From IMG/VR virus record IMGVR_UViG_2061766007_000307: a DNA stretch of 64,000 nt; one strand, 5' to 3'. How positions within the stretch are numbered: position 1 is the stretch's first letter; the number at the start of each line of letters is the position of its first letter. The notes beneath the pieces are model-generated. The model saw nothing but the letters and a program-made list of their open reading frames with translations, made no database searches and was not told the DNA's origin. The translations under genes and the position numbers were made by a program. Positions 4,949 to 54,040 of the stretch are shown here, in pieces. This DNA is from an uncultured virus (IMG/VR IMGVR_UViG_2061766007_000307) (lineage: Duplodnaviria > Heunggongvirae > Uroviricota > Caudoviricetes).

Positions 4949-4996
4949 GTGAACTACTCATGAACTAAAGATTCATGAGCTTCGGATTTCAACGGG
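4949..4996 (-). mobile_element. Family-1 right end/omegaRNA 3' part, truncated by gap
   Basis: Identical to 181-228. Confidence 0.8.
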
Positions 4997-6421: not shown

Positions 6422-8302
6422 TCATTTATACGTGGTCTGAAAGTTTTGATCGTTAGAATAATGCGTCATAGTACACTTGTAAGTTTTCACGAATTTCAAC
6501 TTTCCAGCATCCCATATTTTGTATGCATGCCTAGACCGCATTACATAGTCTTCCGTCAGCGAAGGGTCTTTCCTACATTCTTCAAGCTTGCATTTCATGA
6601 AATTCGACCTATGGTATCTGATGCCATTGATAGCCCATGAATAGCATGGAGCAGATAATCCGCATTCTTCAAACCCGCATACTTTATAGACATTGCCTTT
6701 TGTATAACATAGATCTCCATATGTGATGATTTCACGTGGATGATACATCCTTTCGAAATATTTCAGCATCTTCGAAAAGCCGCCAGACACTTCAGTGTCT
6801 TTGCAAGACACAACTCTATATATCTCATACGATCCTTCTTTTGGCTTCGATCCCATAGAATTGCGCAGCTTGCCGACAAGCATGACTTCAACTAATTCGC
6901 CATCATAGAACAGACCTATCTTATATGTTGAATTTACATATCCTTGTATATGATATGCGTTTACAAAAGGCGCAGCGCTCTTGCTGTCTATCTCTCTGAC
7001 TTCACATTTCCTTGCATGCACTCTCCTGGAGCATAAATGCAGTTTGGACTTGATGTAATCTTTAATGATATCCTGTCTCAAATACCAATCATCTTCCCAT
7101 ATATGTAATAATTGATACCCTAACTCATTGCATTTCAATGACTTATTTTGATGGTATTTCTTGTGCATCCTTGGGTTGAAATCTGAATGCCAGAATATTC
7201 CATTAAACTCTATAGCTATTCTCTTTTCAGGAATCACTATATCTAGCTCTAACGGATATATCAGTTTGCGGTCTCCAGATATAATCTCTCCATTGTAGAT
7301 GCTCTTGATATAATCAAGAAGCCCTGTTTCTGCTATGGATGAGCAGCCTATATATGGTGATTTTATAGGACATATTATGCTTGACTGCGATGATCTGCGT
7401 GTATACAGATTCTTATCTATCTCAAAAGACTTTTCAGTACACATGGAGCATGTAGGGTCGCTGCAAGATACTACATACGTATCTTGAGTCTCTCTTATTA
7501 TGTCTGGATGTCTTTCTAAAAATAACGAATGATTGATATCAATCATGTCTGATGTTTGGGTAAACCACTTTCCATCATATTTCTGAAAATTGGTCTCCAT
7601 TCTCTTTTTTATAACATCAGGGTTGAATGAAGGATTCTCGTAGCCTGTCTTGTTCCTGTATGTTTTCTGTATTTTTGTTTTGACTATATCAGACTGCATA
7701 GCATAGTCTGTACCGTATTTCATACGGCATGTCTTCATGGATTTGTCATGGAAATCTACCATCTCAAAAGGTGTTGCCACACCATATTTCGCCATACATG
7801 TAGCTTTCTGTTTAGCTTGGACATCCTTAGACTGTCCTACCCATTCTACGCCATATCTCTCCTTGAATGTATTGCATATGCGATCTTTCACAACAGATGA
7901 TTTGAATACATTATCTACTCCATATCTGTTGATCACTGTCTGTCTGCATGTTTCTTTCTTATCAGGATCTGCGTTGCAGCATTTAGAGCTGCAGTATATA
8001 GGGTATCCCGATTTGAAGTTCCTGAACTTCGTAGGACGTCCACATACCTTGCACAAGCCAGCTGCATGAGGATTGAAATATATGAATAATCGCTCAGAAA
8101 AGCTCTTATTTGCGCAGATCTCGGCAGACGTGATATCTTTATACAATTCAGGAAAACACTTAGAAAATACATGTTCTTTTTTGAACATGCCATTTGAGGT
8201 CTCTACTTGAAGGAAAGCGTATACATCTTCTTTGTTTGACGGGTTTCCTGAAAAGTGATATCTATCAAAAAGTTCTTTTATGTCTACGGGTCTCTTTGTC
8301 AT
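6422..8302 (-). CDS. Free-standing homing-endonuclease-like protein
   Basis: CxxC and YCSSKC zinc motifs, repeated T(C)xx(K/R)YG units, ELDIVIPEKRIAIEFNGIFWH Vsr/PD-(D/E)XK-like nuclease motif, IWEDDW. Confidence 0.78.
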   Translation of the reverse strand: MTKRPVDIKELFDRYHFSGNPSNKEDVYAFLQVETSNGMFKKEHVFSKCFPELYKDITSAEICANKSFSERLFIYFNPHAAGLCKVCGRPTKFRNFKSGYPIYCSSKCCNADPDKKETCRQTVINRYGVDNVFKSSVVKDRICNTFKERYGVEWVGQSKDVQAKQKATCMAKYGVATPFEMVDFHDKSMKTCRMKYGTDYAMQSDIVKTKIQKTYRNKTGYENPSFNPDVIKKRMETNFQKYDGKWFTQTSDMIDINHSLFLERHPDIIRETQDTYVVSCSDPTCSMCTEKSFEIDKNLYTRRSSQSSIICPIKSPYIGCSSIAETGLLDYIKSIYNGEIISGDRKLIYPLELDIVIPEKRIAIEFNGIFWHSDFNPRMHKKYHQNKSLKCNELGYQLLHIWEDDWYLRQDIIKDYIKSKLHLCSRRVHARKCEVREIDSKSAAPFVNAYHIQGYVNSTYKIGLFYDGELVEVMLVGKLRNSMGSKPKEGSYEIYRVVSCKDTEVSGGFSKMLKYFERMYHPREIITYGDLCYTKGNVYKVCGFEECGLSAPCYSWAINGIRYHRSNFMKCKLEECRKDPSLTEDYVMRSRHAYKIWDAGKLKFVKTYKCTMTHYSNDQNFQTTYK

Positions 8303-8569: not shown

Positions 8570-9319
8570 TTATTCCTGATATGGGACAGGATCTTTAAGA
8601 CCATTAACAGCAAAAGCTTCTAAGCGCTCTGTGCAGCTACCGCACTTTCCGCAGCTCTTTACTTCGTCGCTACCATCACCGCAAGGGATAGGATTGTAAC
8701 ATGTATGAGTATTTCTCAATACTTCTTCTCTTTCAGATTCAGTGAATCCCAAATGCTGCATTGCAGCAATACCAGATGCAAGAACAGCGCCTTTATCAAT
8801 ATTGACAAACGGTGCAATATAATCGACTCTCTCACTGCCCCAGTTTGAGAGGGCGTACAGCTCTCGTGCCATCTTTTGCGATGCTTCGCGACAATCGGGG
8901 TATATCGCGTGGTCCCCAGCGTGCAATCCCAAAGTAATCTTGACATCACTCTTAGTCTTGTTAGCCCAGCCCAAAGCCTTACCATAAATGATAGAAGAGA
9001 AAATGATATTACGGTTTTCAACAACAGTAGACTTCATATTCTCGTCAGCATAATGTCCTTCTGGAATAGCTTCGCCGCCTTTGTGCAGAGATGATGCAGA
9101 ATCCGAAAAACAATCGCGAAGATCAATGATCTGGTGTGAAACATTGAATCCTTTGTCCTGAAGGAACTTGATATTATTCTGGACCTTACGCAATTCAACA
9201 TCATGCTTCTGTCCATAGTTGAACGAGAATGCTCTAATTTCGTCGTAGCCGTTTGCAAGAAGATGCATCAACAGGCATGTGGAATCCAGTCCGCCGCTTA
9301 AACTTATAACTGCTTTCAT
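8570..9319 (-). CDS. queC: 7-cyano-7-deazaguanine synthase
   Basis: SGGLDS PP-loop, YGQKH, RN, YPDCR, TCY...CGKCGSCTER zinc site. Confidence 0.95.
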   Translation of the reverse strand: MKAVISLSGGLDSTCLLMHLLANGYDEIRAFSFNYGQKHDVELRKVQNNIKFLQDKGFNVSHQIIDLRDCFSDSASSLHKGGEAIPEGHYADENMKSTVVENRNIIFSSIIYGKALGWANKTKSDVKITLGLHAGDHAIYPDCREASQKMARELYALSNWGSERVDYIAPFVNIDKGAVLASGIAAMQHLGFTESEREEVLRNTHTCYNPIPCGDGSDEVKSCGKCGSCTERLEAFAVNGLKDPVPYQE

Positions 9320-9344: not shown

Positions 9345-10106
9345 TCAATCCTCTAATATATAATCACAAGAATCTCTAGGATCTACCGAAATATTAGAGT
9401 ATCCTCCGCCCTTTATATCAGCTCCCTGGACCCCTACCCTATATCCATTGATATAAGTGTTATAGAACAATAGGTCTTTTGTTTCTATGTGACGCCTCAC
9501 GATATCATCGTTCATAATAGCAAAGTGCAAGCCGCTAGCCAGTAGACAATATATTCTATTTGTGCTATATAGCGCATAATTGCCATCGATCACCATGCCG
9601 TCATTGATACCTACGGCAAGTGTCATATGGTCGCATAGCTTATGCTTGATTGCGCTGTTGCTGAGCGAATCCGTGATATACCAATAATCGTCTCCCTTGC
9701 AATGTCTCAAGATATCTCCCAGACATGTGTAGACATATGTGTCATGTGTATGTCCGATGATTCCTGTGAGATGCCCATATTCTTTGACATGATAGAATAC
9801 AGACAGGAATGCATATCCTGCATTTCTAGCATAATGATACTTGAGATCTATAGGAACGATGTATGCTGTGCTGTCCGAAGGTTTTGTACATATAGCGATC
9901 ACATCAATATGATAAGTCTTCTGCAAGGTGATATCATCTGTGCTGTTCCCTGTTATAGGAACAGTGATACAGTCTTGAAGACCTAGGCGATCTTTCAGGA
10001 TGTTTTCAATAACTGGCATCCTTTTAGTAAAAAGGTTGTATTCACAAAGTCTATCTGTCTGTTGATGTTCTGCAGTCATGCTGCTGTAATCTTTGTAATT
10101 ATCCAT
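9345..10106 (-). CDS. Hypothetical protein, possible PD-(D/E)XK fold
   Basis: HIDV...PIDLK spacing; weak. Confidence 0.55.
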   Translation of the reverse strand: MDNYKDYSSMTAEHQQTDRLCEYNLFTKRMPVIENILKDRLGLQDCITVPITGNSTDDITLQKTYHIDVIAICTKPSDSTAYIVPIDLKYHYARNAGYAFLSVFYHVKEYGHLTGIIGHTHDTYVYTCLGDILRHCKGDDYWYITDSLSNSAIKHKLCDHMTLAVGINDGMVIDGNYALYSTNRIYCLLASGLHFAIMNDDIVRRHIETKDLLFYNTYINGYRVGVQGADIKGGGYSNISVDPRDSCDYILED

Positions 10107-10307
10107 TTAGATGTTCTTAATTATTAAATATACAAAGGGAACTATATACCTCGAACAATGAGGATTTGCTATATTGGTGTTTCATTGAATGACCAATACA
10201 TCGTCCAGCCAACATTAATCATGTTTCCCTGCGGGATATGAATTGTACGAGGTACAAGATTCGAATATAATCACAAACGATCATACATTTATATAATCAC
10301 AAAAGCC

Positions 10308-10841
10308 TCAGAGTATATCGCGAACTTCCATCAAAATAAATCCTAGCCTGTTCTCTCCCAGCCATTCAGAAGGGTGTACAGATTTTGGAGACCGCGCATC
10401 CAAGCCTATACCCCATCTCCTATCATATGGACTTGCTTCAGCCAGTATCATACCTCGAGTAGATACCAGAAGATCTTTCAGTTTCGGGTTCTGACTGAAC
10501 TTTGCAATATTACCTTTCAAGACTATATCATTGACAACAGTGTTCCATGTATTGTCATTGAAATTCCTGACTTTGCGTCCCAATGCCTTTATATTCTTGG
10601 GATCTGTTGTAGCCATGATCAAGTCGAAGGCAGCCTTATCATTGAACGCCATAGCCTTCATAGCCATCATATACTGTTCCATGCATACGTATTTCACGTT
10701 ATCTACAGTGAACTCGCTTATATACCATTGTGAAAAGGGTGCATACTTCCCATCTTTAGGATATGGACCCCAAAAGAAAGCAAAGGACAAGTGCTGCCCT
10801 TTGCGTTCAAGTTCAATAAGATCTTTGATTCTGTATTTCAT
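10308..10841 (-). CDS. NADAR (YbiA-like) family hydrolase
   Basis: FSQWY, EQYMMAMKA, KALGRKV, KFSQN, EASPYDRRWGIG, GENRLG. Confidence 0.93.
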   Translation of the reverse strand: MKYRIKDLIELERKGQHLSFAFFWGPYPKDGKYAPFSQWYISEFTVDNVKYVCMEQYMMAMKAMAFNDKAAFDLIMATTDPKNIKALGRKVRNFNDNTWNTVVNDIVLKGNIAKFSQNPKLKDLLVSTRGMILAEASPYDRRWGIGLDARSPKSVHPSEWLGENRLGFILMEVRDIL

Positions 10842-11275: not shown

Positions 11276-11321
11276 TGTCTTAAAACCAGATATAGATTAG
11301 AGAATTATATACTTGTTATTG

Positions 11322-12547
11322 TTATTTACAAGATTTACTATATTGACGTTTCATCGGGTGTCCAATGACATTGCCCTCACCGTCCTTAATCCCACTTCCC
11401 GACGGGATTTTATTTTCGATTGCATCCAGGGCTTGCGGATGCAGACCAAACTGCAATATATTCTTTGCAGCGTTCACGTCCCTATCATGGTGTTCGCCAC
11501 AAACAGGACATGTCCACTCTCTTACATTGAGGTTTTTGACATCCTTGTTCTGATAGCCGCACTTGTGGCATATCTGGCTAGATGGATCAAAGCGACCTAT
11601 AAACACAACGTTCTTGCCATACCATTCGCTCTTGTATGTAAGCTGCCTTACAAACTCTCCCCAAGAAACAGACTGTATAGCTCTCGCAAGATGATGGTTC
11701 TTCAACATACTGTCAACATTAAGGTCTTCCAGACATATTGTGTCGAATCTCTTCACAATATGTCTGTGGATAATTTGTGAAGATAATCCGACCTTTGGTT
11801 GGCTATCTTTCTGTGTTGCCTTGCAACCTTTAGCCTCATTTCTTCATGACGCTTTGACGTCTTTTCAGTCCTTGCGAACTTCTGCTGAAGCTTTTTCAGT
11901 TTCCTTTGGCCACGTTCAAAGTACTTCGGATTACTATATTTCGTACCGTCAGACAATGTAGCAAAGTCCTTTATTCCCAGGTCGATTCCAACAGCAGTTT
12001 CCTCTTGTATCTTGGCTTTCGATACATTCGGCTTGCCGTCGTCGACTACGATGGAACACCAGTAATCTCCACATTTGTCTCTTGATACAGTCAACGTGCC
12101 AATCTTGCAAGTTGAAAGGTCAAACTCTTGGTTGTGACACAGTTTCATCCACCCTATCTTTGGTATCTTCACCTTGTTCTTTTCGAAGTCGAAATGAACA
12201 CTATTGATGAACTTGCACACGTCCTTTGAGTGCTTCTTTGACTTAAACTTAGGGAATCCTTTCTTTGACTTGAAGAACTGCGTGTATGCATTGTCGAGAC
12301 AGCGCAATGACTGCTGTAACGCTTCATTTGTACAATCATTGAGCCATTTATACTCTTCAGTATGTTTAAGCAATGTCAGTTCTTTTGCGAGTTGCAGGTA
12401 CGTTACGTTTTTCTTTGTTTCTTTGTATGTCTCAACTTTTCGGTCAAGTCCCCAATTGTATATAAAACGAGCACAGCCGAAGAATTGAGACAGCATGATC
12501 TGCTGCTTCACTGTCGGTTTTATTTTGTATTTGTACGCTCGTTTCAT
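11322..12547 (-). pseudogene. tnpB: TnpB family 2, frameshifted by a 2-nt insertion near 11758
   Basis: MKRAYKY...GIDLG...LHKLSTD in one frame and [11 protein letters not shown]...CPVC...DRDVNAA in the next; GAC-AT-ATT-GTG junction; 3' end differs from family 1 (ATGAAACGTCAA). Confidence 0.85.
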
Positions 12548-12558
12548 AATAGATGATT

Positions 12559-12803
12559 GTGAACTACTCATGAACTAAAGATTCATGTGCTTCAGATTTC
12601 AACGGGATGTTTGCGTTGCGTACAGACTAGCTTTTCAGTTGGTCTAGACTCCGTCTTATTAGTCCATCCTTCCGTATAATCGATCGTTCCAGTCGATGTT
12701 GTTTTATCAACACTGTAAAGATACAATGATGATTTTACATTTACAAGAAATTTTGGACTTTTTGTGTGATTCATCACAGAAACTGAAGATTTCAAGGTTT
12801 TTC
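12559..12803 (-). mobile_element. Non-autonomous cassette: left-end hairpin, TATCTTTAC promoter-like motif, omegaRNA, right end
   Basis: Homologous to 12810, 37235 and 38722; right end lies 11 nt upstream of the family-2 tnpB ATG. Confidence 0.85.
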
Positions 12804-12809
12804 ATAATT

Positions 12810-13036
12810 GTGAACTACTCATGAACTAAAGATTCATGAGCTTCGGATTTCAACGAGATGTTTGCGTTGCGTACAGACCAGCTTTTCAGTTGGTTTAGAC
12901 TCCGTCNNNNNNNNNNNNNNNNNNNNNNNNNNNNNNNNNNNNCTGTAAAAATACAATGATGATTTTATATTTACACGAAATTTTGAACTTTTTGTACGAT
13001 TCATCCCCGAAACTGAAGATTTCTGGGTTTTCTCGT
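12810..13036 (-). mobile_element. Second tandem non-autonomous omegaRNA cassette (internal gap)
   Basis: Same layout; TCAT precedes ACGAGAAAACCC left end. Confidence 0.82.
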
Positions 13037-13126
13037 ATGATTCATATAAATCGTGTGTTATTCTGAAAAATCAAGAAAACTTGATTTTTATTGACTTAGG
13101 GACAACAAGTATATAGTTCCCTAACC

Positions 13127-27233: not shown

Positions 27234-28427
27234 ATGGTAAAAATATACAAAACATATAAATACATGATGTGCCCGAATAAGGAGCAGGAAAGTGTTCTTG
27301 CGAGATATTTCGGGTCAGTCCGCTTTGTGTATAACCATTTCCTTGCTGAACGCAAAAGACAGTATAGTGAGAGCGGTAAGAGTGACAACTACCGCACACA
27401 AGCAAAAGCTTTGACCTTGTTGAAAAAGAAAGAAGATTTCGCTTGGCTGAAGGAAATCAACTCCCAGACACTACAGTTCTCTCTTCGCTGTTTGGAAACC
27501 GCATATACTAACTTTTTTAGCGGTAGAACGAAGTTTCCGAGATTCAAGATTAAAAAGAATGGAGGTAGTTTCACTGTTCCTCAGAACTGCTCCATCAAAG
27601 ATGGGAAAATCTACATACCAAAGTTCAAGCAAGGCATCAAAATCAAGGAGCACAGAACATTCCAAGGGAATGTCAGGAATATGACGATCTCCATAACGCC
27701 AAGCGGGAAATACTATGTTTCTATATTATCCGAAGTCGAACATAAGCCTTTGAGGAAAACCAACAAGAAGGTAGGGATAGACTTAGGTATCAAAGATTTC
27801 ATAGTAACTAGCGATGGTATGAGGTATTCAAGCAACAAGTTTGTCAAGCATTATGCCAAGAAACTTACAAAGGCTCAAAAGCGTTTGTCCAAAAAGTACA
27901 AAGGAAGTGGAGAGTGGCATAGGATGCGATTGAAGGTTGCGAGAATACAAGAGAAGATACACAACTGCCGTATGGACAAGTTGCATAAGATTTCCGCCGA
28001 TTTGGTAAGGAATTATGATGTGATTTGCTGCGAGGACTTGAATGTGAAAGGAATGCAGAGAAACCACAAACTCGCTCAAAGCATAGCTGATGCGAGCTGG
28101 GGTATGTTCTTGAATTTGCTTTCGTACAAATGTGAGAGGGACGATAAGCAGCTTGTTAAAGTGAGCAGGTTCTATCCATCCTCAAAGACTTGTAGCCACT
28201 GTGGTTATGTCAAGAAAGATTTGTCTCTGAAAGACAGATATTGGAAATGTCCTCATTGCGGGAATATGATCGATAGAGATTTGAATGCATCGATCAACAT
28301 CCTGAACGAAGGTATCAGAAATATATCGGCTGGAACGGTCGATTATACGGAGGGAGCAGACGTAAGACCTACTCGTGGGCAGTCAGCGTTGAAATCCGAA
28401 GCCTGCGAATCTTTAGTTCGTGGGTAG
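27234..28427 (+). CDS. tnpB: TnpB family 1, intact RuvC triad
   Basis: HTH N-terminus, GIDLG, CCEDL, zinc finger, DRDLNA; right end TTCAC at 28428-28432. Confidence 0.95.
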   Translation: MVKIYKTYKYMMCPNKEQESVLARYFGSVRFVYNHFLAERKRQYSESGKSDNYRTQAKALTLLKKKEDFAWLKEINSQTLQFSLRCLETAYTNFFSGRTKFPRFKIKKNGGSFTVPQNCSIKDGKIYIPKFKQGIKIKEHRTFQGNVRNMTISITPSGKYYVSILSEVEHKPLRKTNKKVGIDLGIKDFIVTSDGMRYSSNKFVKHYAKKLTKAQKRLSKKYKGSGEWHRMRLKVARIQEKIHNCRMDKLHKISADLVRNYDVICCEDLNVKGMQRNHKLAQSIADASWGMFLNLLSYKCERDDKQLVKVSRFYPSSKTCSHCGYVKKDLSLKDRYWKCPHCGNMIDRDLNASINILNEGIRNISAGTVDYTEGADVRPTRGQSALKSEACESLVRG

Positions 28428-34176: not shown

Positions 34177-36831
34177 TTACTCTGCGTTAGAAGTAAGCGC
34201 GCCTGTAGGAAGGATATAGCAGCGCTGAACAAGCTTCTCCATAGGACGGGCACCTTCGATCTTGATGTCAAGGACACCATAGAAATTGTCGATAATCTCT
34301 GCAGTATTATTAGTACTGTTCATGATTACCTCAAAGGCAGTCAATCCACCTGAACGCTGTGGAGTAGCTGTCACACTCTTCAAGAATGTGTTACATTTTG
34401 AAACTATCTCTGTTCTGATAGATTCGGTGTTCTCCTGGAATACATATGGTCTGATGATATTCTCGATCTCATCCATGATGTAAACCACGAAATCTCTGAA
34501 GCTCAATGCAGATAGTGCAGAAACAGGCTTCTGTTTAGCAGTCTTGTTACCATATACACATATTGTGTTCTGTTCATCTCCAGCATCAATGATAGCATTG
34601 ATACCCATAGCTTCAAGCCATTCTCTATCTTTTGTAGACAATGGAACTTCTGGGTTGTATCCTGGAAGAGCACCTCTCAATGTACCTGCAGCAACAGACC
34701 AAGGATTGTCTTTCTGGATGAACAGATTAGAAACTACACCTGCGGGAGGAAGAAGCTTAGCACCCTTGCGGTTCCATGGGTAGAAGTATCCTACATGTGT
34801 TGCGCCATCCTTGATATTAGGCACTGTGAAGATATCAGATGTTGCTATTGCTTTGTAATTCAAGCTGCCGAACTCATCTGTGAAATCATCTACCTTAGTC
34901 AATGCCAATGCAGAAGGTGCGTTAAGAAGGCCTGTTGCGTGCTGTGCCATACATACCTTAGCAAAGATTGCCTTAGAGCTAGGTTCGATGCCGTATCCCC
35001 AGCAGTCTACCAAGTATCTGAATGATACTACCATACGGTCTGTGATAGCCTTCCACATATTAGTATGTCCATAAACAGCTTCAGGAGCAGGTTCAGGTTC
35101 CCACTTGCCTGTAGTCTTGTTGCGAAGAGTCACAGCATATTTCAAAGGAGTATCTTCGGCATCTCTCAATGAATGAAGGATAGCCTTATAGTTGTTAGGG
35201 TTAGATGCACATGGCTCTACACCGACCTCAATCTTATCCATATGTGATGTCTCAAGGATCTTCTTCTCTGCAGGAGTGCCCTTCTCACAATAAGGAACTG
35301 TGAATCCTATGATATTAGTTGTAGATGCAAGATTTCTCAAGAATGTATCTATTGAAATATCTGTGCCTGCAGCATTTGTCAAGCCTGGAACAGATGCTCC
35401 TGTGTATGTATATACACCTGTGATACCATTACAGTCAAACAATGCGTCATCCATTCTGATGAACTGCAATGAAGATGCATGCTCGCCAAGACCCCAAGAT
35501 TTCATCAATGAGATCATGTCATTAGACAATGTCTTGACATCGCTGAAGATCACTATTGTAAACATGAAGTCAGCCAAAGTGTAATCAGATGCACTGAATC
35601 CTTTCTCATCTAGATATTCCTGCAGCTCGAATGGAATGTCATTTCCGTAGTAGTCTGAAATAGGAATATTGTATGCAAGCATTGATGATGTATCGCTTGG
35701 AGTCTTGTATACATATGCTCTGATATCATTACCAGAAGCGTTTGCAATATATACGAAAGGCTGTCCATCATATGTCTCATCATCAGCAGGGTTCAAATGA
35801 ACTGATGTATCGTATGGGTTAGACAAGATGCGGTTACCCAAAACGTCATTAGTTCCCAATAGCTTCACAATATCAATTGTGATGATATCTACCTCAGATT
35901 CGCTTGGTTCAGGCTCATCAGCAATTGTCAATGTAACGTTATCGCCAGAGCGAGTAATTGCTATATTAAGCTGGCGGTCATTAGAATATACATTGTCTAT
36001 ATCTGTAACGTAAACATGAGGTGTTTCTGATAGATACTCAGCCTTAGGATAGATCAACACATCTACAGGCTCTACATTTTCGTCCAAGATACTCGCTCCT
36101 GTCGGATCATCTGGGTTAGGGATATATCTGCAAAGATGTGCGCGACCGATAGGCTTATAAGTAGCATTGGCTATGTACCATAGGTTGTCGCTGTCTTTGT
36201 TGATGTCTTCTGAGAATATAATGACATTCAGATAATCATATTCTGCAAGCGCTGCAGCAGCTGCTGTATTATCTGTTCCATTGTTCTCAGTACCATTCTC
36301 TGTGTCATCACCTGCAAGATTACTCCATGTAACAACAGATTCGTCTGTAAAGTCACATAGCAATTTCTTTTCGCCTAACGTGATGATGTTCTGATCATTT
36401 ATAGAATCGCGCAAGCGGTCAGGCCATGGCTCATACCACAAAGCCGTAGAGAAAGCTCCTTTGATCGGTGATGCGAAAGGCTGTGCAAACTTTGTACCTA
36501 TTGCATATCCATCAATAACATTCTCTGCGTCACCATATGAATGAAGGTTAAGCGCAATAATCGGACCAGCTTTCAACATTTCAATAGCTGTACGATGGAA
36601 GAAACATCCGTTAGCCTCTAGTTTAGGGTCGATGTTGCCAAATATAGATACAAACTGATCTGAATCGTTGATCTTAAATGGCTTGTTGAATGGGCCTTTG
36701 TAAGAAAAGCCTGGAACAATTCGGCCTCTTGAATATGTGCTCTCGTATGTTGGCTGCATAGTGCTCAAATCGAACTCGCGGCGGTAAACACCGGCAGACT
36801 TGATACTAACTAATTCTTGAGATATTGCCAT
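34177..36831 (-). CDS. Contractile tail sheath protein (gp18-like)
   Basis: SAGVYRREFD, GPFNKP, FVSIFG, PWSVAAGTLRG, GINAI, YGNKT, VFQENT, STNNTAEIID. Confidence 0.92.
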   Translation of the reverse strand: MAISQELVSIKSAGVYRREFDLSTMQPTYESTYSRGRIVPGFSYKGPFNKPFKINDSDQFVSIFGNIDPKLEANGCFFHRTAIEMLKAGPIIALNLHSYGDAENVIDGYAIGTKFAQPFASPIKGAFSTALWYEPWPDRLRDSINDQNIITLGEKKLLCDFTDESVVTWSNLAGDDTENGTENNGTDNTAAAAALAEYDYLNVIIFSEDINKDSDNLWYIANATYKPIGRAHLCRYIPNPDDPTGASILDENVEPVDVLIYPKAEYLSETPHVYVTDIDNVYSNDRQLNIAITRSGDNVTLTIADEPEPSESEVDIITIDIVKLLGTNDVLGNRILSNPYDTSVHLNPADDETYDGQPFVYIANASGNDIRAYVYKTPSDTSSMLAYNIPISDYYGNDIPFELQEYLDEKGFSASDYTLADFMFTIVIFSDVKTLSNDMISLMKSWGLGEHASSLQFIRMDDALFDCNGITGVYTYTGASVPGLTNAAGTDISIDTFLRNLASTTNIIGFTVPYCEKGTPAEKKILETSHMDKIEVGVEPCASNPNNYKAILHSLRDAEDTPLKYAVTLRNKTTGKWEPEPAPEAVYGHTNMWKAITDRMVVSFRYLVDCWGYGIEPSSKAIFAKVCMAQHATGLLNAPSALALTKVDDFTDEFGSLNYKAIATSDIFTVPNIKDGATHVGYFYPWNRKGAKLLPPAGVVSNLFIQKDNPWSVAAGTLRGALPGYNPEVPLSTKDREWLEAMGINAIIDAGDEQNTICVYGNKTAKQKPVSALSALSFRDFVVYIMDEIENIIRPYVFQENTESIRTEIVSKCNTFLKSVTATPQRSGGLTAFEVIMNSTNNTAEIIDNFYGVLDIKIEGARPMEKLVQRCYILPTGALTSNAE

Positions 36832-36874
36832 AATTTGTTATATAGTCTATTATATTCTTATTTACTGTCTTACC

Positions 36875-37071
36875 TGAAACAACAAAAACAATGTGCAATG
36901 TCTATCTGACACTGCACATTGCGCCCACCCCAAATAATGGTCATTATTTATGTTATGACCTTGACGCTTCATTGGATGGTCAAAGGGAATCATCCTCCAC
37001 GCCCATGAACACGTTTATTAACATGCACGTAACCATCGAATATATAATCACAAAGATATGGCAATATGCTC
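36875..37071 (-). ncRNA. Stand-alone family-2 omegaRNA-like unit 1 (promoter, scaffold, variable segment, terminator)
   Basis: GTGATTATA, then GGGCGTGGAGGATG...CATCCAATGAAGCGTCAA aligning with the tnpB-2 3' end, then CAATGTGCAGTGTC/GACATTGCACATTG and a T-tract. Confidence 0.7.
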
Positions 37072-37234
37072 TGAAACAATAAAAAACAATGTACAATGTC
37101 TATATGACACTGCACATTGCGCCCTCCAAACAATGGTCATTATCTATGACCTTGACGCTTCACAGGATGGCCAAAGGGAAGCATCCTCCACGCCCATGAA
37201 CACGCTTGTTAACATGCACGTAACCATCAATATT
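37072..37234 (-). ncRNA. Family-2 omegaRNA-like unit 2 (own promoter replaced by the family-1 cassette)
   Basis: Direct repeat of unit 1. Confidence 0.7.
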
Positions 37235-37480
37235 GTGAACTACCCATGAACTAAAGATTCATAGGCTTCGGATTTCAACGGGATGTTTGTGTTGCGTACA
37301 GACCAACTTTTCAATTGGTTTAGACTCCGTCTTATTAGTCCCTCCCTCCGTATAATCGACTGTCCCGGCCGATGTTGTTTTATCAACACTGTAAAGATAC
37401 AATAATGATTTTACGTTTACACGAAATTTTAGACTTTTGTGTGATTCATCTAAGAAATTAAAGATTTCTGGGTTTCTCGT
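37235..37480 (-). mobile_element. Family-1 omegaRNA cassette with left end
   Basis: Homologous to 12810 and 38722. Confidence 0.85.
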
Positions 37481-37481
37481 A

Positions 37482-37672
37482 TGAAACAACAAAAACAATG
37501 TGCAATGTTTAATAAACACTGCACATTGCGCCCACCAAATAATGGTCAATTATTTATGACCTTGACGCTTCACTGGATGGCAAAAGGGATCATCCTCCAC
37601 GCCCATGAACACGCTTATTAACATGCACGTAATCATCAAATATATAATCACACAGATATGGCAATATGCTCT
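37482..37672 (-). ncRNA. Family-2 omegaRNA-like unit 3
   Basis: Direct repeat of unit 1 with GTGATTATA at 37643-37651. Confidence 0.7.
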
Positions 37673-37679
37673 GATTGGA

Positions 37680-38720
37680 AATAAAATATGCAATACCCTC
37701 GCGAGCACTGCATATATGAGAATTATCTGTTTAATTTTCTAACGTAAAGATACTATATTATAATGTATGTTCCAACAGAAACTTTGAAAATCTTTTCAAT
37801 ATATACAAAAAAGATAGCAGTACCCTCACGAGCATTGCTATCAGATGAATTTAATATTATTAAGTATGTACCGTGAACTGCCCACGAACCAAAGATTCGC
37901 GTGCTTCGGATTTCAACGGGATATTTGCGTTGCGTACAGACCAACTGAAAAGTTAGTTTAGACTCCGTCTTATTAGTCCCTCCCTCCGTATAATCGACCG
38001 TCCCAGCCGATGTTGGTTATCAACACTGTAAAGATACAACAATATTCTATATGATCAAACAAAAGCCTTGTTTATTGTATGTAAGTAACAAAAAGAAATG
38101 CAGTGCTCTCACGAGCACTGCATTCAAATGATTAATTTTTTATGGATTAGTTTTGTGTGCTGTAAAGATACAATAATGTTCTATATGATCAAACAAAAAC
38201 ATTGTTTATTGTATGTAAGCAACAAAAAGAAATGCAGTACTCTCACGAGCGCTGCATTCAAAGGATTAAATTTTATTGATTATGATACTGTAAAGATACT
38301 ATAATGTTCTGAATATCCAAACAGAAATATAGAAATTTTTCATATAATAAATATACAAAAGAAAAGCAGCACTCTCACGAGCACTGCTAGTCGAAAGGAT
38401 TATATTGTATTATGATATTGTAAAGATACTATGAAGTTCTGAATATCCAAACAGAAATAGAGAAATTTTTCATGTGATATATAAAAATGCAGTACTCTCA
38501 CGAGCACTGCATTCCTGGAAACATAAAAAAAATATAAAAAATAAATGGATGATCTTATTTTAGCTTAAATGCATAAAATTTATCCGCAGCTAAAGAACAA
38601 CACGTCCTATTGCCTGTATGTATGCATTTATATACATATAATCACGCAGAAATCTCTTTTTGATGCAAATATAAACAAAAAAAATAACATGCATTATTCT
38701 CGCGAGCATTGCATGTTATA
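37680..38720 (-). ncRNA. Array of seven conserved-hairpin sRNA-like units
   Basis: TGCAGTRCYCTCRCGAGCACTGCA-type hairpins at 37686, 37813, 38097, 38231, 38365, 38486, 38684, each with a T-tract 3' on the minus strand; TATCTTTAC motif about 30-35 nt upstream of four of them. Confidence 0.65.
37873..38037 (-). ncRNA. Family-1 omegaRNA without left end, using an sRNA-array promoter and terminator
   Basis: Upstream sequence 38026-38095 matches array unit 38160-38230 rather than the left-end hairpin. Confidence 0.7.
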
Positions 38721-38721
38721 A

Positions 38722-38969
38722 GTGAACTACTCATGAACTAAAGATTCATGAGCTTCGGATTTCAACGGGATGTTTGCGTTGCGTACAGACCGACTGAAAA
38801 GTTGGTTTAGACTCCGTCTTATTAGTCCCTCCCTCCGTATAATCGACCGTTCCAGCCGATGTTGTTTATCAACACTGTAAATATACAATAATGATTTTAT
38901 ATTTACAAGAAATTTTGAACTTTTTTGTGCGATTCATCCCAGAAACTGAAGATTTCTGGGTTTTCTCGT
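38722..38969 (-). mobile_element. Family-1 omegaRNA cassette with left end
   Basis: Complete ungapped copy; TCAT precedes the left end. Confidence 0.88.
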
Positions 38970-39044
38970 ATGATTTTATAAAGGTGCTGGATGCAATAAG
39001 AGCATGCAACACCTTTACCTTAAAGAGACGTATATATGCATTGA

Positions 39045-40391
39045 TTACATATCACCGAAACCACCGTTTGATGGTGAAGATGCTGCACCGAATGGATTGC
39101 TAGGAGCTGCTCCCATGTTACCTACAAATGGGTTGCTCTGCGGTGCTGCTCCCATATTGCCTGCAAATGGGTTGCTCTGTGGTGCTGCTCCATGCATGTT
39201 TACACCAAAAGGATTGCTTGCTGGAGCTGCCGGCTGGGCTGCAAACGGATTGGCTACCTGTATCTGAGGTGCTACACCCTGAGCTATTGCAGAAGCAGCT
39301 GTTCCTGCTGATGTTGTCATCATAGCCATTGCTTCTTGATAGCGTCTAGCAAATGTTTCTTGAACCTCTTTAACCTTTTCAGGAGTGAACATATTTGGGT
39401 TCGATGTCAGCAATGCATTGTACTTTTCTTTGATACCCTTGAATGCAGCATAGAATTGAGCCTTCCATGCTTCGTAAGCTTTAATATCAGTACCTACATA
39501 AACGAATGAGCCGCCAGATGTCTTGACTAACTTGTCGTGTCCTAGATCATATGATTGAAGTGATACATTGTACTGGATACGGCGGCTGCGAGATGCATCA
39601 TAAGACAAATCTACAACGATGGCCTTAGTATTAGAAGGCTGGACTAATTCTGCCATAGCACCGTAAAGTCCCTGCTCTTCAAATGCCTTGCTCAATGTAT
39701 ATGAAACACGGAACAAAACGAAGCGACCCACAGTATCTGGATTGTTCTTATTGCTAAGAATCTGGCCTAAGAAATACTTATTGTCAATAGTGCGTACGAA
39801 TTTCTTTCTTAATTCAGTGTCACCAGATAAAGCATTAAGCATCTTATCCAAAATGTCATCATGCTTATTAGCTACTCTTGGAGATATCTCGCAGAAAATA
39901 GGCTCTTTCTCGTCACACGGATCACATATCATTGTCATGATAGAGTTGAATACTGAAACAGACTTATTCTTATCGATCATGATAGGATAAGGTCTGATCA
40001 CGACTGTGTTGCTCTCCTTGTAATTCAAAGCGAAAATACACTCCTCTGTGATAGGTTCGTAACCACCTGAATCACCGTTGATTTGAGATACAACATCAAC
40101 TTCGTTTGATCCATCCATACCAGACAACCAATCATCCTCGCCACCTACGTTGTCAGGGATGTCGAACTGTGTCCCTTCATTGTTGTAACTTTCAGTTTCA
40201 ATTGAATGATTTGCATAAGGATTATCATGAACTGTTGTGTCAATGACTGATGCTCCTGGTACACTTTCTTCGTCCGCTGTACTGCTGACATTAAACGGAT
40301 TTGAAGCTGTTTCTGATGCTTCGCGAGCTGCCTTTTCTGTGGCTAGTCTCTTTTTACGCTGATACTGCGTTTCTTTAATTTCTTCTGCCAT
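39045..40391 (-). CDS. gp32-like single-stranded DNA-binding protein (putative)
   Basis: YFLGQILSNKNNPDTVGRFVLFRV resembles the T4 gp32 core; acidic N-terminal extension and NPF-repeat tail. Confidence 0.55.
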   Translation of the reverse strand: MAEEIKETQYQRKKRLATEKAAREASETASNPFNVSSTADEESVPGASVIDTTVHDNPYANHSIETESYNNEGTQFDIPDNVGGEDDWLSGMDGSNEVDVVSQINGDSGGYEPITEECIFALNYKESNTVVIRPYPIMIDKNKSVSVFNSIMTMICDPCDEKEPIFCEISPRVANKHDDILDKMLNALSGDTELRKKFVRTIDNKYFLGQILSNKNNPDTVGRFVLFRVSYTLSKAFEEQGLYGAMAELVQPSNTKAIVVDLSYDASRSRRIQYNVSLQSYDLGHDKLVKTSGGSFVYVGTDIKAYEAWKAQFYAAFKGIKEKYNALLTSNPNMFTPEKVKEVQETFARRYQEAMAMMTTSAGTAASAIAQGVAPQIQVANPFAAQPAAPASNPFGVNMHGAAPQSNPFAGNMGAAPQSNPFVGNMGAAPSNPFGAASSPSNGGFGDM

Positions 40392-50914: not shown

Positions 50915-52278
50915 CAAGAAAACCTCGAAATCTTTAGTTTCGTGGATGAATTGCACTAACCTTGGTTTACTATATAATCACTTATAGTGTCAGGATTAGC
51001 TTCTTCTATCGAACAAACTAAGCTTAAAAAGAGTTGTAAATTTGCAAAAATATATGTAATTTTACAGAAAAATTATAAAATGGTAAAGATATACAGAACA
51101 TACAAGTATAGGATGTATCCGAATAAGGAGCAAGAGCAAGTTCTTGCGAGATATTTCGGCTCTGTCCGTTTTGTGTATAACCATTTCCTTGCTGAACGCA
51201 AAAGGCAATACGAAGAGAACGGTAAGAGCGATAACTATCTTGCACAGGCAAAAACTTTGACCTTGCTGAAAAAGAAAGAAGATTTCGCATGGCTAAAAGA
51301 GATCAACTCCCAAACCTTGCAGTTTTCTCTCCGCTGTTTAGAAACCGCCTATACTAACTTTTTCAGCGGTAGAACGAAGTTTCCGAGATTCAAGACGAAG
51401 AAGCACGGAGGTAGCTTCACTGTCCTGCAAAACTGCTCTATCAAAGATGGAAAAATCTTTATTCCGAAGTTCAAACAAGGCATCAAAATCAAAGAGCACA
51501 GAGCATTCCAAGGGAATGTTAGAAATATGACGATTTCGGTCACACCAAGCGGGAAATGCTATGTTTCCATATTATCCGAAGTTGAACACGAACCTTCAAG
51601 GAAAACCAACAAGAAGGTCGGGATAGATTTAGGCATCAAGGATTTCATAGTAGCTAGCGATGGTGTGAGGTATTCAAGCAACACGTTTGTCAAGCATTAT
51701 GCTAAAAAGCTTACAAAAGCTCAAAAGTGCTTATCAAAGAAGCATAATGGTAGCGGTGAATGGCATAGGATGCGATTGAAGGTTGCGAAGATACATGAGA
51801 AGATACATAACTGCCGTATGGACAAATTGCATAAGATTTCTGCCGATTTGGTAAGGAATTATGATGTGATTTGTTGCGAGGATTTGAATGTGAAAGCTAT
51901 GCAGAGAAACCACAAGCTCGCACAAAGTATAGCTGATGCTAGCTGGGGTGCATTCTTGAATCTACTTTCGTACAAATGTGCGAGAGAAGATAAGCAGCTT
52001 GTCAAGATAGACAGGTTCTATCCTTCTTCAAAGACTTGCAGTCACTGCGGTTATGTTAAGAAAGACTTGTCTCTAAAAGACAGAACCTGGAAATGCCCTC
52101 ATTGCAGACAGATGATTGATCGCGATCTGAATGCCGCGATCAATATCCTAAATGAAGGCATTAGAAATATATCGGCTGGAACGGTCGATTATACGGAGGG
52201 AGCAGATGTAAGACCTACTTGTAGGCTGTCAGCGTTGAAATCCGAAGCCCGTGGATCTTTAGTTCATGAGTAGTTCAC
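50915..52278 (+). mobile_element. Non-autonomous IS200/IS605-type element (left end, tnpB, right end; no tnpA)
   Basis: Left hairpin CCTCGAAATCTTTAGTTTCGTGG and right hairpin ending GTAGTTCAC; left boundary approximate. Confidence 0.78.
51080..52273 (+). CDS. tnpB: TnpB family 1, intact RuvC triad
   Basis: Start MVKIYRTY by homology with 27234; same motifs. Confidence 0.95.
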   Translation: MVKIYRTYKYRMYPNKEQEQVLARYFGSVRFVYNHFLAERKRQYEENGKSDNYLAQAKTLTLLKKKEDFAWLKEINSQTLQFSLRCLETAYTNFFSGRTKFPRFKTKKHGGSFTVLQNCSIKDGKIFIPKFKQGIKIKEHRAFQGNVRNMTISVTPSGKCYVSILSEVEHEPSRKTNKKVGIDLGIKDFIVASDGVRYSSNTFVKHYAKKLTKAQKCLSKKHNGSGEWHRMRLKVAKIHEKIHNCRMDKLHKISADLVRNYDVICCEDLNVKAMQRNHKLAQSIADASWGAFLNLLSYKCAREDKQLVKIDRFYPSSKTCSHCGYVKKDLSLKDRTWKCPHCRQMIDRDLNAAINILNEGIRNISAGTVDYTEGADVRPTCRLSALKSEARGSLVHE

Positions 52279-54040
52279 ATGGGATGCTATTACGGCTAAC
52301 ATGATTGCTATTGAATGATTGAGGAGTATTGTCTATATATGACATAAGATCATAGTTGAATGCAGCAATATTGGTATCCATGCTAGGGTCTATCAGATCT
52401 TCTATGAAGTTCTGGAACTGCCTGTTGTTATATGCTGCGCTTGCTGTCACACAAGACATTGCCATATCATCATGGCCTGTAATAGCTGCATAAGATGATG
52501 ATCCTTCTTTTCTGCTGAAATTTGCAAATTCTCCGACAGTATCTATATCCTGGAGCACTATCTGTCTCTTGCTTTCCAATACACGGAAGTCCTGGCAGCA
52601 GCTTGCTTTAGAATCTTTGGTAAGGACTAATCCCTTGATATTTCCAGTCGGATTATAATTAATGATGGAAGAAGCTTCCATCTGGTTCATCTCACCGTCG
52701 ACCATAAACAAATAGTTATACAGAGATTCTCCATATTTATTCCACTCTATATTGATCATGTGATTATATGTGAGCATTGTATATGTAGACAGGCAGTATA
52801 AGACTTCTGCCATCTGTTTGATGGTAGCTTCAGAACTTTTCCAGTATCCGCACTGCACAAGTTTGATCTTGTCTCTGATATCATTAGAATTGTTCTGCAG
52901 TAGCGATATGTCGAATATTTGGATCACTGAAGAATCGTTTCCAGAACCTTCAGCAATATCTACTGACAGCAAGAATCGCTTGTCTGGCCTATTCAGCTCA
53001 TGAGTATCGAAATCTTCATGCCATCTGAAACATTCCATGAATGGGACTCCTGATGGAGCGTTGAAAGGCTTCGCTATAAATGTTGTAGTAGACTTCATCA
53101 GTTCTATAACGCGAGGTCCCAGAAGAGTATATCCAGAATCCATGAATGAGTTTCCATACTGTCTCATGAATGAAGCTTCACCTCCTACGTCTTTAAGAGT
53201 AGCTTTCATCCATGCCTCATCTCTTCCAGGACGCTCCCACCAGTCCACTCTGATAGGGACATATGAATTTTCACCTTTACATGCCTCGTCATATATATGA
53301 TAGAATCTGTTCAGTCCATTCGGTGTAGATGTTATTATGATCTTAGAGTCAGACATTGACGAAATGGTAGGCATCGCGTTCTCATAGAAGTTATCCAGCA
53401 GGTTCTTCTGTACATGAGCGAACTCATCACAATACAGCACGTGCACGGTGAATCCGATGAAAGAGTTCTTTGTTGTACCTTGGCATACTATACGCGATCC
53501 ATTATCGAACTTGATATTCTTGCTACTCATGTTCACAACGCCAGGCTGCAGGAAATACGGGATACGCTGCATAATCTCTCGTATCTTGTCAGCGATTTCT
53601 TCAGCTGACTGTGCTTTATTTGAAAGCAAACCGACAGTCTTCTCTGCATGGAATGTCGAATACCATAGCAAGAATATTGAAGCTGTGACGGTCTTACCCA
53701 TCTGTCGTGATGTCAAAACCACATTAAATCTGTTCTGCATATAGTTCTTCAGCATCTTCTTCTGGTAAGGAAAGAGCTTCACTTTCTTGTATCCCTGAGT
53801 ACCTGTCATGATATAACAATACGTCTCAGCATAATATATTATATCATTCTTGCACCGGTATATCTCTGCTATCTCTTCTCTGGTGTACATAAAAGGCATA
53901 TTGGCTCTGCGGAAGTCGCTGCTCTTGAAAAACGGTGACTTGCCTTTGATGATACCGTTTTCTGCATCCTCCTTCCACTTCTCAACCTTCTCGGTAGACC
54001 AGGTCACTACCTTCACCACTTCCTTCTTTTTCTTTGCCAT
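52259..54040 (-). CDS. terL: Terminase large subunit (T4 gp17-like)
   Basis: SRQMGKT, LYCDEFAH, ITSTPNG, SVDIAEG, HDDMAMS. Confidence 0.95.
   Translation of the reverse strand: MAKKKKEVVKVVTWSTEKVEKWKEDAENGIIKGKSPFFKSSDFRRANMPFMYTREEIAEIYRCKNDIIYYAETYCYIMTGTQGYKKVKLFPYQKKMLKNYMQNRFNVVLTSRQMGKTVTASIFLLWYSTFHAEKTVGLLSNKAQSAEEIADKIREIMQRIPYFLQPGVVNMSSKNIKFDNGSRIVCQGTTKNSFIGFTVHVLYCDEFAHVQKNLLDNFYENAMPTISSMSDSKIIITSTPNGLNRFYHIYDEACKGENSYVPIRVDWWERPGRDEAWMKATLKDVGGEASFMRQYGNSFMDSGYTLLGPRVIELMKSTTTFIAKPFNAPSGVPFMECFRWHEDFDTHELNRPDKRFLLSVDIAEGSGNDSSVIQIFDISLLQNNSNDIRDKIKLVQCGYWKSSEATIKQMAEVLYCLSTYTMLTYNHMINIEWNKYGESLYNYLFMVDGEMNQMEASSIINYNPTGNIKGLVLTKDSKASCCQDFRVLESKRQIVLQDIDTVGEFANFSRKEGSSSYAAITGHDDMAMSCVTASAAYNNRQFQNFIEDLIDPSMDTNIAAFNYDLMSYIDNTPQSFNSNHVSRNSIPCELLMN

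Follow-up and report, generated by a model that had tools for sequence, protein, structure and literature searches.

Three tandem units on the minus strand of a 64,000-nt stretch of phage DNA (IMG/VR virus record IMGVR_UViG_2061766007_000307; the whole stretch is called the window below) are very likely homologues of the omegaRNA scaffold that forms the right end of a family-2 tnpB element (tnpB-2) in the same window. An earlier note, made from the letters of the sequence, had described them as omegaRNA-scaffold-like and related to the 3' end of this gene, and a covariance model, a sequence-only profile and a reciprocal search agreed with that view. We rather favour the reading that the units are stand-alone omegaRNA-like genes, which stem from a single right end and were then tandemly duplicated. 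Their layout is as follows.

36875..37072, minus strand: unit 1, 198 nt; promoter motif 37042-37052, scaffold 36929-37036, terminator 36888-36922 followed by a T run
37073..37234, minus strand: unit 2, 162 nt; scaffold 37125-37227, terminator 37086-37120, no promoter of its own
37482..37674, minus strand: unit 3, 193 nt; promoter motif 37642-37652, scaffold 37534-37636, terminator 37495-37529

The triplication had been announced as one of ~195 bp. The three copies are indeed 88-90% identical, but the single figure does not describe their actual lengths of 198, 162 and 193 nt. BLAST identity was 89.9% over 198 nt between units 1 and 3, 87.6% over 170 nt between units 1 and 2, and 88.7% over 159 nt between units 2 and 3. 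Tandem Repeats Finder gave a period of 191, and one 23-mer and one 17-mer each occurred three times (shuffles expect 0 and 0.1). The plus-strand pattern TTGACGCTTCATTGGATG-N14-TCCTCCACGCCC previously read in the repeat is present in unit 1, and so is its counterpart at the tnpB-2 end at 11343, TTGACGTTTCATCGGGTG-N13-CCCTCACCGTCC; the functional strand of the units is, however, the minus strand. Coding sequence was rejected by eye, as indels among the units break every short frame.

The reference for these comparisons was established with the C-terminal part of the window's family-2 TnpB as query, which retrieved 79 viral loci (247 kb). The 16 closest TnpB relatives (L001-L016) share a conserved stretch of ~120 nt that begins at or after the end of the open reading frame (ORF), lies wholly beyond the stop codon in most of them and ends with ...GTATATAGTTCCCT, the flanks diverging beyond. 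On the basis of its position, strand-specific G-U pairs and architecture, this conserved RNA is called here the putative family-2 omegaRNA. Helices P1-P6 and a pseudoknot were set by hand on an alignment of eight sequences and checked by pair counts (RNAalifold on the raw MAFFT alignment recovered only P1). In this family alignment 93.4% of the cells were paired, versus 38-44% when slid, and 15 pairs had changed on both sides; 0/500 shuffles reached these values. The 24-sequence model alignment, which includes the units, was 92.7% paired (38-46% when slid). The family pseudoknot unites the GGGAA loop of the 5' hairpin with UUCCC directly before the boundary and, though outside the model, was 95% paired in the 24-sequence alignment, with five of five pairs co-varying. 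The same topology occurs in the solved ISDra2 omegaRNA and is reportedly conserved in Cas12 guide RNAs (excerpts of PMC10097598). The window's own representative is the following.

11322..12571, minus strand: family-2 tnpB, DED residues present; together with its right-end scaffold (11296-11417) it spans 11296..12571

A covariance model (R1) was built from eight family-2 scaffolds: six came from viral loci and two from the window (the tnpB-2 end and 10132-10248), and the seed did not contain the units. The entire window was searched with R1 with the filters disabled; its E-values are rough because calibration was shortened. Its matches were:

tnpB-2 end: 127 bits, E 2.2e-25
10133-10246: 82 bits, E 1.3e-15
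unit 3, minus strand, full-length: 42.7 bits, E 4e-7
unit 1, minus strand, full-length: 31.6 bits, E 1e-4
unit 2, minus strand, full-length: 28.2 bits, E 6e-4
next-best match in the window: 15.0 bits, E 0.41

This search, proposed in the earlier note, was thus significant for three of three units. Rfam 15 returned only the six tRNAs from the window at the gathering threshold and, from 36500-39500 at E<=5, only two far-sub-threshold chance matches outside the units. Neither of the outcomes that had been named as speaking against the proposal, a lack of significant model matches or a better-fitting Rfam family, was therefore observed. Specificity was checked on the 79 loci, where R1 gave 19 matches at E<=1, 16 of which were the 3' ends of L001-L016. 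Two more fell at a second place in L006 and L008, and the last (L036, 21.7 bits) was the sole match among the 63 more distant relatives. As tnpB-attached members outside the seed score 34-59 bits, the units are placed inside the range of the family. The sequence-only profile (nhmmer) recovered them at E 1.9e-4, 3.2e-3 and 0.012, and in the reverse search with a unit profile the best foreign matches were family-2 scaffolds (L010/L012, E 0.0026).

Close kin of the units were scarce elsewhere. A "distant" blastn search against the GenBank phage collection gave no match, and exact unit words (a 23-mer and an 18-mer) had 0 matches each in viral contigs. A looser core pattern found only two other distinct elements in viral contigs (L080/L081/L087 and L085/L086) and 0 in genome contigs. 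Both are stand-alone family-2-type scaffolds and neither is closely related to the units; the scaffold of L081 lies in a 5' leader in a GC-rich phage, those of L085 and L086 between beta-propeller genes. In this search of viral and genome contigs no tnpB was found whose right end fits the units better than family 2.

In the units, P1 reads CAUGU/RCGUG with the loop UAAYAA, P2 GGCG/CGUC and P3 GGAUG/CAUCC. The junction UGAAGC is conserved, and a 3' hairpin GGUCAU/AUGACC with variable loops is followed by AUURUUU. The pseudoknot joins AAYAA of the P1 loop with UURUU just before the guide position, with 5/5 pairs in 3/3 units. It retains the family topology and is wholly re-coded (AAUAA/UUAUU versus GGGAA/UUCCC), while unit 2 displays a compensatory change from U-A to C-G (AACAA/UUGUU). 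The earlier note quoted the GGTCA(T)/(A)TGACC hairpin and the three strings 3' of it accurately, but ATTATTT/ATTGTTT is not a guide: it forms the pseudoknot's 3' strand and so is part of the scaffold.

Paired cells amounted to 108/108 in the units, versus 24-46% when slid. Variable columns made up 6 of 72 paired and 26 of 92 unpaired columns (Fisher p 0.0014, an approximate value with gap columns counted as variable), and all six changes in paired columns preserve pairing. Contigs of runs X5, X6 and X8, from three other studies, supplied many further variants, and ten of those listed were examined. Nine fell inside the aligned units, all at unpaired positions or preserving pairs, and the tenth (37055) lay outside. 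The RNA structure of the units is best read as still being under selection.

The motif TGTGATTATAT, earlier reported as a promoter in units 1 and 3, was found intact at 37042-37052 and 37642-37652 on the minus strand, ~15 nt before P1. Its 24 occurrences in the window (4.5 expected) nearly always lie shortly before a gene and in that gene's orientation, and in one of them 6 nt separate the motif from the 5' end of a tRNA. From this distribution we infer that it serves the phage as an extended -10-like promoter of its own, transcription beginning ~5-8 nt farther downstream. Unit 2 lacks a promoter because an ORF-less family-1 element, D3a (37235-37480), abuts its 5' side. The terminators claimed for all three units were each recovered by a minus-strand scan (36922-36888, 37120-37086 and 37529-37495), in a region with nine terminator-like sites versus 1.0 expected. 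Every unit ends with a 14-16-bp hairpin and then a T run, and the predicted unit RNAs would be ~150 nt long. A contribution of the promoter motif by an insertion sequence (IS) left end was considered and rejected: 11 of 13 family-2 loci have no copy, and the single copies in L004 and L008 both lie outside the stretch from the left end to the start of tnpB.

No tnpB ORF lies upstream of them, the nearest tnpB genes being those at 27234-28427 and 11322-12571, and their flanks consist of other non-coding modules and a tail-sheath gene, with no adjoining effector or transposase. The units also lack the terminal ...GTATATAGTTCCCT repeat. Neither side holds a family-2 left end or terminal inverted repeat, and the statement that no IS left end is present there was upheld, as the sole left-end-like match in the window belongs to the tnpB-2 element itself.

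13085..13123, plus strand: left terminal inverted repeat of the family-2 element, an inverted copy of ...CAACAAGTATATAGTTCCCT

At their other end, family-2 elements repeat the final ~30 nt of the conserved stretch in inverted orientation and therefore have terminal inverted repeats. In the window element (11296-13123) and in loci L003-L016 these repeats are ~30 bp long (...GYCAACARGTATATAGTTCCCT), with A/T on the flanks. Two family-1 ORF-less copies lie between the left end (13085-13123) and the start of tnpB-2, and no transposase was seen near the element.

After the pseudoknot the units read GGGGUGGGCG, GGAGGGCG or GGUGGGCG and then a common terminator arm. The guide position thus holds 8-10 G-rich nt, near-identical in the units and running into the terminator stem, and the fixed 3' segment can be written GGNGGGCG plus terminator arm. 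The units had been proposed to be domesticated and diversifying. Domestication is plausible in view of the promoters, the terminators, the absent transposon ends and the preserved pairing. Diversification is unsupported because the segments behind the scaffold are nearly the same in all three units, and the difference between ATTATTT and ATTGTTT is the compensatory pseudoknot change. The guide-target search that had been suggested was unproductive: the window gave only self-matches of the units, an 18-mer spanning guide and terminator had 0 matches in viral contigs, and a 19-base guide pattern had 5 matches in 185,579 species genomes, about the number estimated for chance. These five fell in Comamonas, Serpentinimonas, Acidobacteriaceae and Planctomycetota, GC-rich bacteria of soil or water, none from the gut.

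The trio sits in a 2.2-kb non-coding spacer (36832-39044) between an ORF of unknown function and the following gene.

34177..36831, minus strand: tail sheath gene, 884 aa, directly downstream of unit 1

This 884-aa product was tried as a hidden effector and rejected, being a tail sheath protein. Unit 1 lies ~45 nt upstream of its start codon (36831) and fills the promoter-to-terminator leader of the gene. The related phage L082 has an orthologous tail sheath (73% aa identity), and since the units are absent from its leader, the island is lineage-specific. Joints 37059->38091 and 37059->38225, found in contigs of runs X6 and X5 with only 24 letters on the shorter side, hint at shorter forms of the island.

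Under the favoured reading, that of stand-alone omegaRNA-like genes, each unit would be a small transcription unit on the minus strand, in which a ~150-nt RNA runs up to an intrinsic terminator and, in units 1 and 3, starts from an extended -10-like phage promoter. One family-2-like right end may have arrived between the promoter and the terminator of the tail-sheath leader and then lost its tnpB, left end and terminal repeat. The whole promoter-scaffold-terminator module would have been duplicated twice, and a family-1 ORF-less element would later have inserted at the promoter of unit 2. That the unit RNAs still load a family-2-type TnpB in trans, with the fixed 3' segment as guide, is a tentative proposal that we consider possible and somewhat short of an even chance. 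The guide would then be GGNGGGCG plus the terminator arm, i.e. the sequence of the units' own insertion site, and the units, acting as other stand-alone omegaRNAs would, could expose alleles that lack units, in co-infecting relatives, to cleavage and copy-in.

Several observations weigh against this picture. As to homology and structure, R1 yields rough E-values, alignment A5 had its nested helices fitted to the model, and covariation among three close copies rests on two compensatory events, which 67/500 shuffles match. Minimum free energy folding was no better than that of shuffles (minus-strand z +0.02, -0.46 and -1.11). As to function, the terminator stem of 14-16 bp placed 8-10 nt past the scaffold would sequester a normal 16-nt guide, the guide segment has only self-matches in the window, and none of the listed sequencing runs containing the region is on record as RNA (contigs of run X20, whose RNA status is guessed, cover small parts and were excluded from expression evidence). 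The candidate partner is itself imperfect. Relative to the intact 408-aa homologue in L001, tnpB-2 shows a one-base frame change at 11741-11759, near residue 265, and its pseudoknot sequence differs from that of the units. The frame change splits the gene into frames of 272 aa and 144 aa that together hold the catalytic D, E and D, and it may be an assembly error. Finally, the 290-nt tail-sheath leader of L082 has the same promoter motif and one terminator hairpin but no units; the units are recent and lineage-specific, as expected of selfish remnants.

The strongest competitor, to which we give a minor but substantial share of credence, is that the units are inert solo right-end remnants: a family-2-like element would have inserted in the tail-sheath leader and decayed, the remnant would have been copied passively with the leader module, and its RNA, if made, would have no TnpB role. 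Such remnants would explain why no tnpB, left end or terminal repeat stands beside the units, why the island is missing from L082 and why a terminator occupies the guide position. They would also suit a 2.2-kb spacer crowded with other IS-derived pieces, the frameshift in the nearest tnpB-2, and the stand-alone copies L081 and L085, which likewise lie between unrelated genes. They would leave unexplained that a scaffold so far from the family consensus has kept every helix and fully re-coded its pseudoknot, that differences among units and other samples avoid paired positions or preserve pairing, and that an intact promoter motif precedes P1 by ~15 nt in units 1 and 3.

A bolder version of the omegaRNA-like reading, which we hold to be unlikely, is that the units form a phage-domesticated, promoter-driven omegaRNA array that programmes a TnpB-family protein of the host or of the phage, in the latter case perhaps encoded beyond the window. 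The guide would be short, fixed and G-rich, and its use would lie outside transposon maintenance. If so, the array could bring about repression of the kind exerted by TldR or late-infection cleavage of a site in the host or in a rival phage, and as a viral form it would bridge selfish right-end RNAs and dedicated guide-RNA arrays.

It is less probable still that the units are a cis-acting leader or attenuator of the tail-sheath operon, whose fold and terminator would adjust read-through into the late structural gene and which would derive from a scaffold only by accident. The terminator of unit 1 does end ~45 nt before the tail-sheath ATG with no separate TGTGATTATAT between, the L082 leader shows the motif followed by a terminator hairpin, the scaffolds at 10133-10246 and in L081 also lie in 5' leaders, and 36764-36936 is spanned by a contig of run X20, whose status as RNA is a guess. 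Yet attenuation gives no reason to keep an omegaRNA pseudoknot architecture, units 2 and 3 are separated from the gene by 200-650 nt and in each case by a further terminator, and L082 manages without a scaffold.

We regard as quite improbable that the units encode decoy or sponge RNAs, i.e. guide-less scaffolds made late and titrating a TnpB/Cas12f-like protein of the host or of rival elements. A short guide position folded into the terminator, three copies counted as promoter-driven and a scaffold differing from that of the phage's own tnpB-2 would suit this role; against it, no candidate target protein was identified, and the excerpts of PMC10691335, PMC10055086 and PMC10705468 contain no precedent. 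Chance resemblance of an unrelated phage small-RNA family may practically be dismissed: although BLAST of the tnpB-2 end against the units gave nothing at E<0.01 and thermodynamic folding is unremarkable, three independent search types agree on region and strand, the units score 28-43 bits against a background maximum of 15 bits, and the unmodelled pseudoknot was found at the homologous place.

Other effector-less scaffolds occur in the window and among the viral loci. One of them is a solo copy that precedes another gene.

10133..10246, minus strand: solo family-2 scaffold, nhmmer E 7e-8, R1 82 bits, in the leader of ORF 9345-10106

It stands behind two TGTGATTATAT motifs (10265-10275 and 10291-10301) and its resemblance to the tnpB-2 end far exceeds that of the units. 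In phage record G001, a stand-alone family-2 scaffold without the P5/P6 hairpin (L095, 1501-1646, minus strand, 52 bits) follows a tail-fibre-like gene that encodes a Peptidase_S74 domain. It displays its own TATATTTG promoter element and a co-varying pseudoknot (AGGGAG/CUCCCU); ~29 nt that may serve as guide (AAAAGUUCAAAUACUUAUUUGUUGAGAGG) separate it from a strong terminator, and the nearest tnpB, if any, is more than 1.5 kb away. At 438-540 of L006/L008, just upstream of a tnpB left end in a 363-kb phage record, another family-2-like scaffold (42 bits) was observed, its pseudoknot fully re-coded (GGUGU/ACACC).

Family 1 comprises tnpB genes at 233-1132, 27234-28427 and 50987-52273 and a set of ORF-less derivatives, D3, one of which interrupts the trio.

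37235..37480, minus strand: D3a, 246 nt, ORF-less family-1 tnpB derivative fused directly upstream of unit 2
181-281, 1838-1948, 4949-4996, 12559-12803, 12810-13036, 37235-37480, 37873-38081 and 38722-38969, all minus strand: D3 copies or fragments, ~8

D3a is composed of a left-end part with a TTGTATCTTTACAG promoter motif and a right-end scaffold ending in GTAGTTCAC. Over its 3'-terminal 150 nt, up to GTAGTTCAC, D3 can be aligned to the 3' ends of family-1 genes; its 5' part resembles the region upstream of these genes, and the 3' flank differs in each copy. Four N-masked runs of the window abut D3 or tnpB-1 copies. The guide position of D3a (37219-37234) coincides with the start of unit 2; the equivalent places in units 1 and 3 (37022-37040 and 37622-37640) display a one-base insertion, ATATTCGATGG and ATATTTGATGA versus ATATT-GATGG, which could spare these two units from targeting by a family-1 TnpB. 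Farther along the spacer (37680-38520, minus strand) are tandem mini-units of ~130 nt, each with a TTGTATCTTTACAG-type promoter motif, ~35-40 A/T-rich nt and a terminator hairpin whose loop, CUCGUGAGAG, is conserved; one similar hairpin, with the loop UUCGUGAGAAU, occurs in the tail-sheath leader of L082.

The window as a whole is part of a large phage. It encodes a T4-type large terminase (52259-54040), whose best relatives are from phages of ~220-640 kb at 32-35% identity, as well as a lysozyme, QueC, NADAR and six tRNAs. Near the tRNA cluster lie genes for a DUF7487/Mom-like/restriction endonuclease (REase)-domain protein, QueC and a NADAR-domain protein (6422-8302, 8570-9319 and 10308-10841), which suggests DNA or RNA base modification and ADP-ribose-related functions in the phage. 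The DNA was present in bovine and pig gut metagenomes, with at least 20 runs from at least nine studies among the matches listed. Besides the tandem trio, the 64 kb contain four tnpB genes from two families, ~8 ORF-less elements of family 1 and a single close solo scaffold of family 2.

The units were compared with known systems as described in excerpts of the papers cited. Like the TnpB omegaRNA, or right-end RNA (reRNA), of ISDra2 (Nakagawa et al. 2023, PMC10097598), they have a multi-stem scaffold of ~105-120 nt and a pseudoknot that joins the nucleotides just 5' of the guide to a segment near the 5' end. They differ from classical tnpB omegaRNAs in not lying at a tnpB 3' end or within transposon ends and in having their own promoter and terminator; in place of the 16-nt guide that ISDra2 takes from its flank, 8-10 nt precede the terminator stem. 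The units thus share two structural features with classical omegaRNAs and lack two others, tnpB linkage and transposon ends. The symmetrical ends of the family-2 element itself resemble those of IS630-linked TnpBs as described in PMC10691335, unlike IS200/IS605 ends.

Stand-alone omegaRNAs with neither effector nor transposase (Altae-Tran et al. 2021, via PMC10691335) reportedly work in trans, and their role is stated there to be unknown. Like them, the units are effector-less scaffolds in a genome that also has effector loci. Those RNAs have evidently been mobilised, whereas the units are without transposon ends and have a common 3' flank; the units further differ in their tandem triplication, single shared "guide", phage promoter motif and phage location. 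PATE-like ORF-less IS200/IS605 elements (Meers et al. 2023, PMC10055086) are comparable in lacking an ORF and in having a right-end scaffold that needs TnpB in trans, but PATEs keep left and right ends and the units neither terminus. The D3 family, with its left-end part, right end and eight different flanks, does fit the PATE pattern (PMC10055086), and more generally what has been published on mobilised omegaRNA elements without an effector (PMC10691335, PMC10055086).

Some domesticated TnpB relatives, the TldR proteins, use guides of 9-11 nt (Wiegand et al. 2023, PMC10705468), which the 8-10 nt of the units resemble. As described there, TldR guide RNAs are also TnpB-derived, non-mobile and in some cases phage-encoded. 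They adjoin a nuclease-dead tldR and have identified promoter targets, whereas the units have no adjacent effector, no target was found for them in the searches above, and the TnpB-2 of the window has kept its DED residues. In the omegaRNA arrays of Sigma-associated inactivated TnpB (PMC10691335) the whole omegaRNA unit is tandemly duplicated, as in our trio, but those arrays are reportedly able to target multiple sites and come with an inactivated effector and a sigma factor, in contrast to the one guide-position sequence and absent linked effector of the units.

In the excerpts of this literature, effector-less trans-acting omegaRNAs, PATE-like elements and duplicated omegaRNA arrays are thus already published; promoter-and-terminator-equipped tandem copies in a phage were not found in a limited search of full-text papers. 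The phage offers a compact natural test case for the role of effector-less omegaRNAs. Should the trio bind a TnpB, it would exemplify the evolution, within a virus, of a guide-RNA gene that is immobile and has its own promoter, and its re-coded pseudoknot variant would be useful to map the scaffold features that TnpB reads. Should it not, it would show how right-end remnants persist and duplicate in phage leaders.

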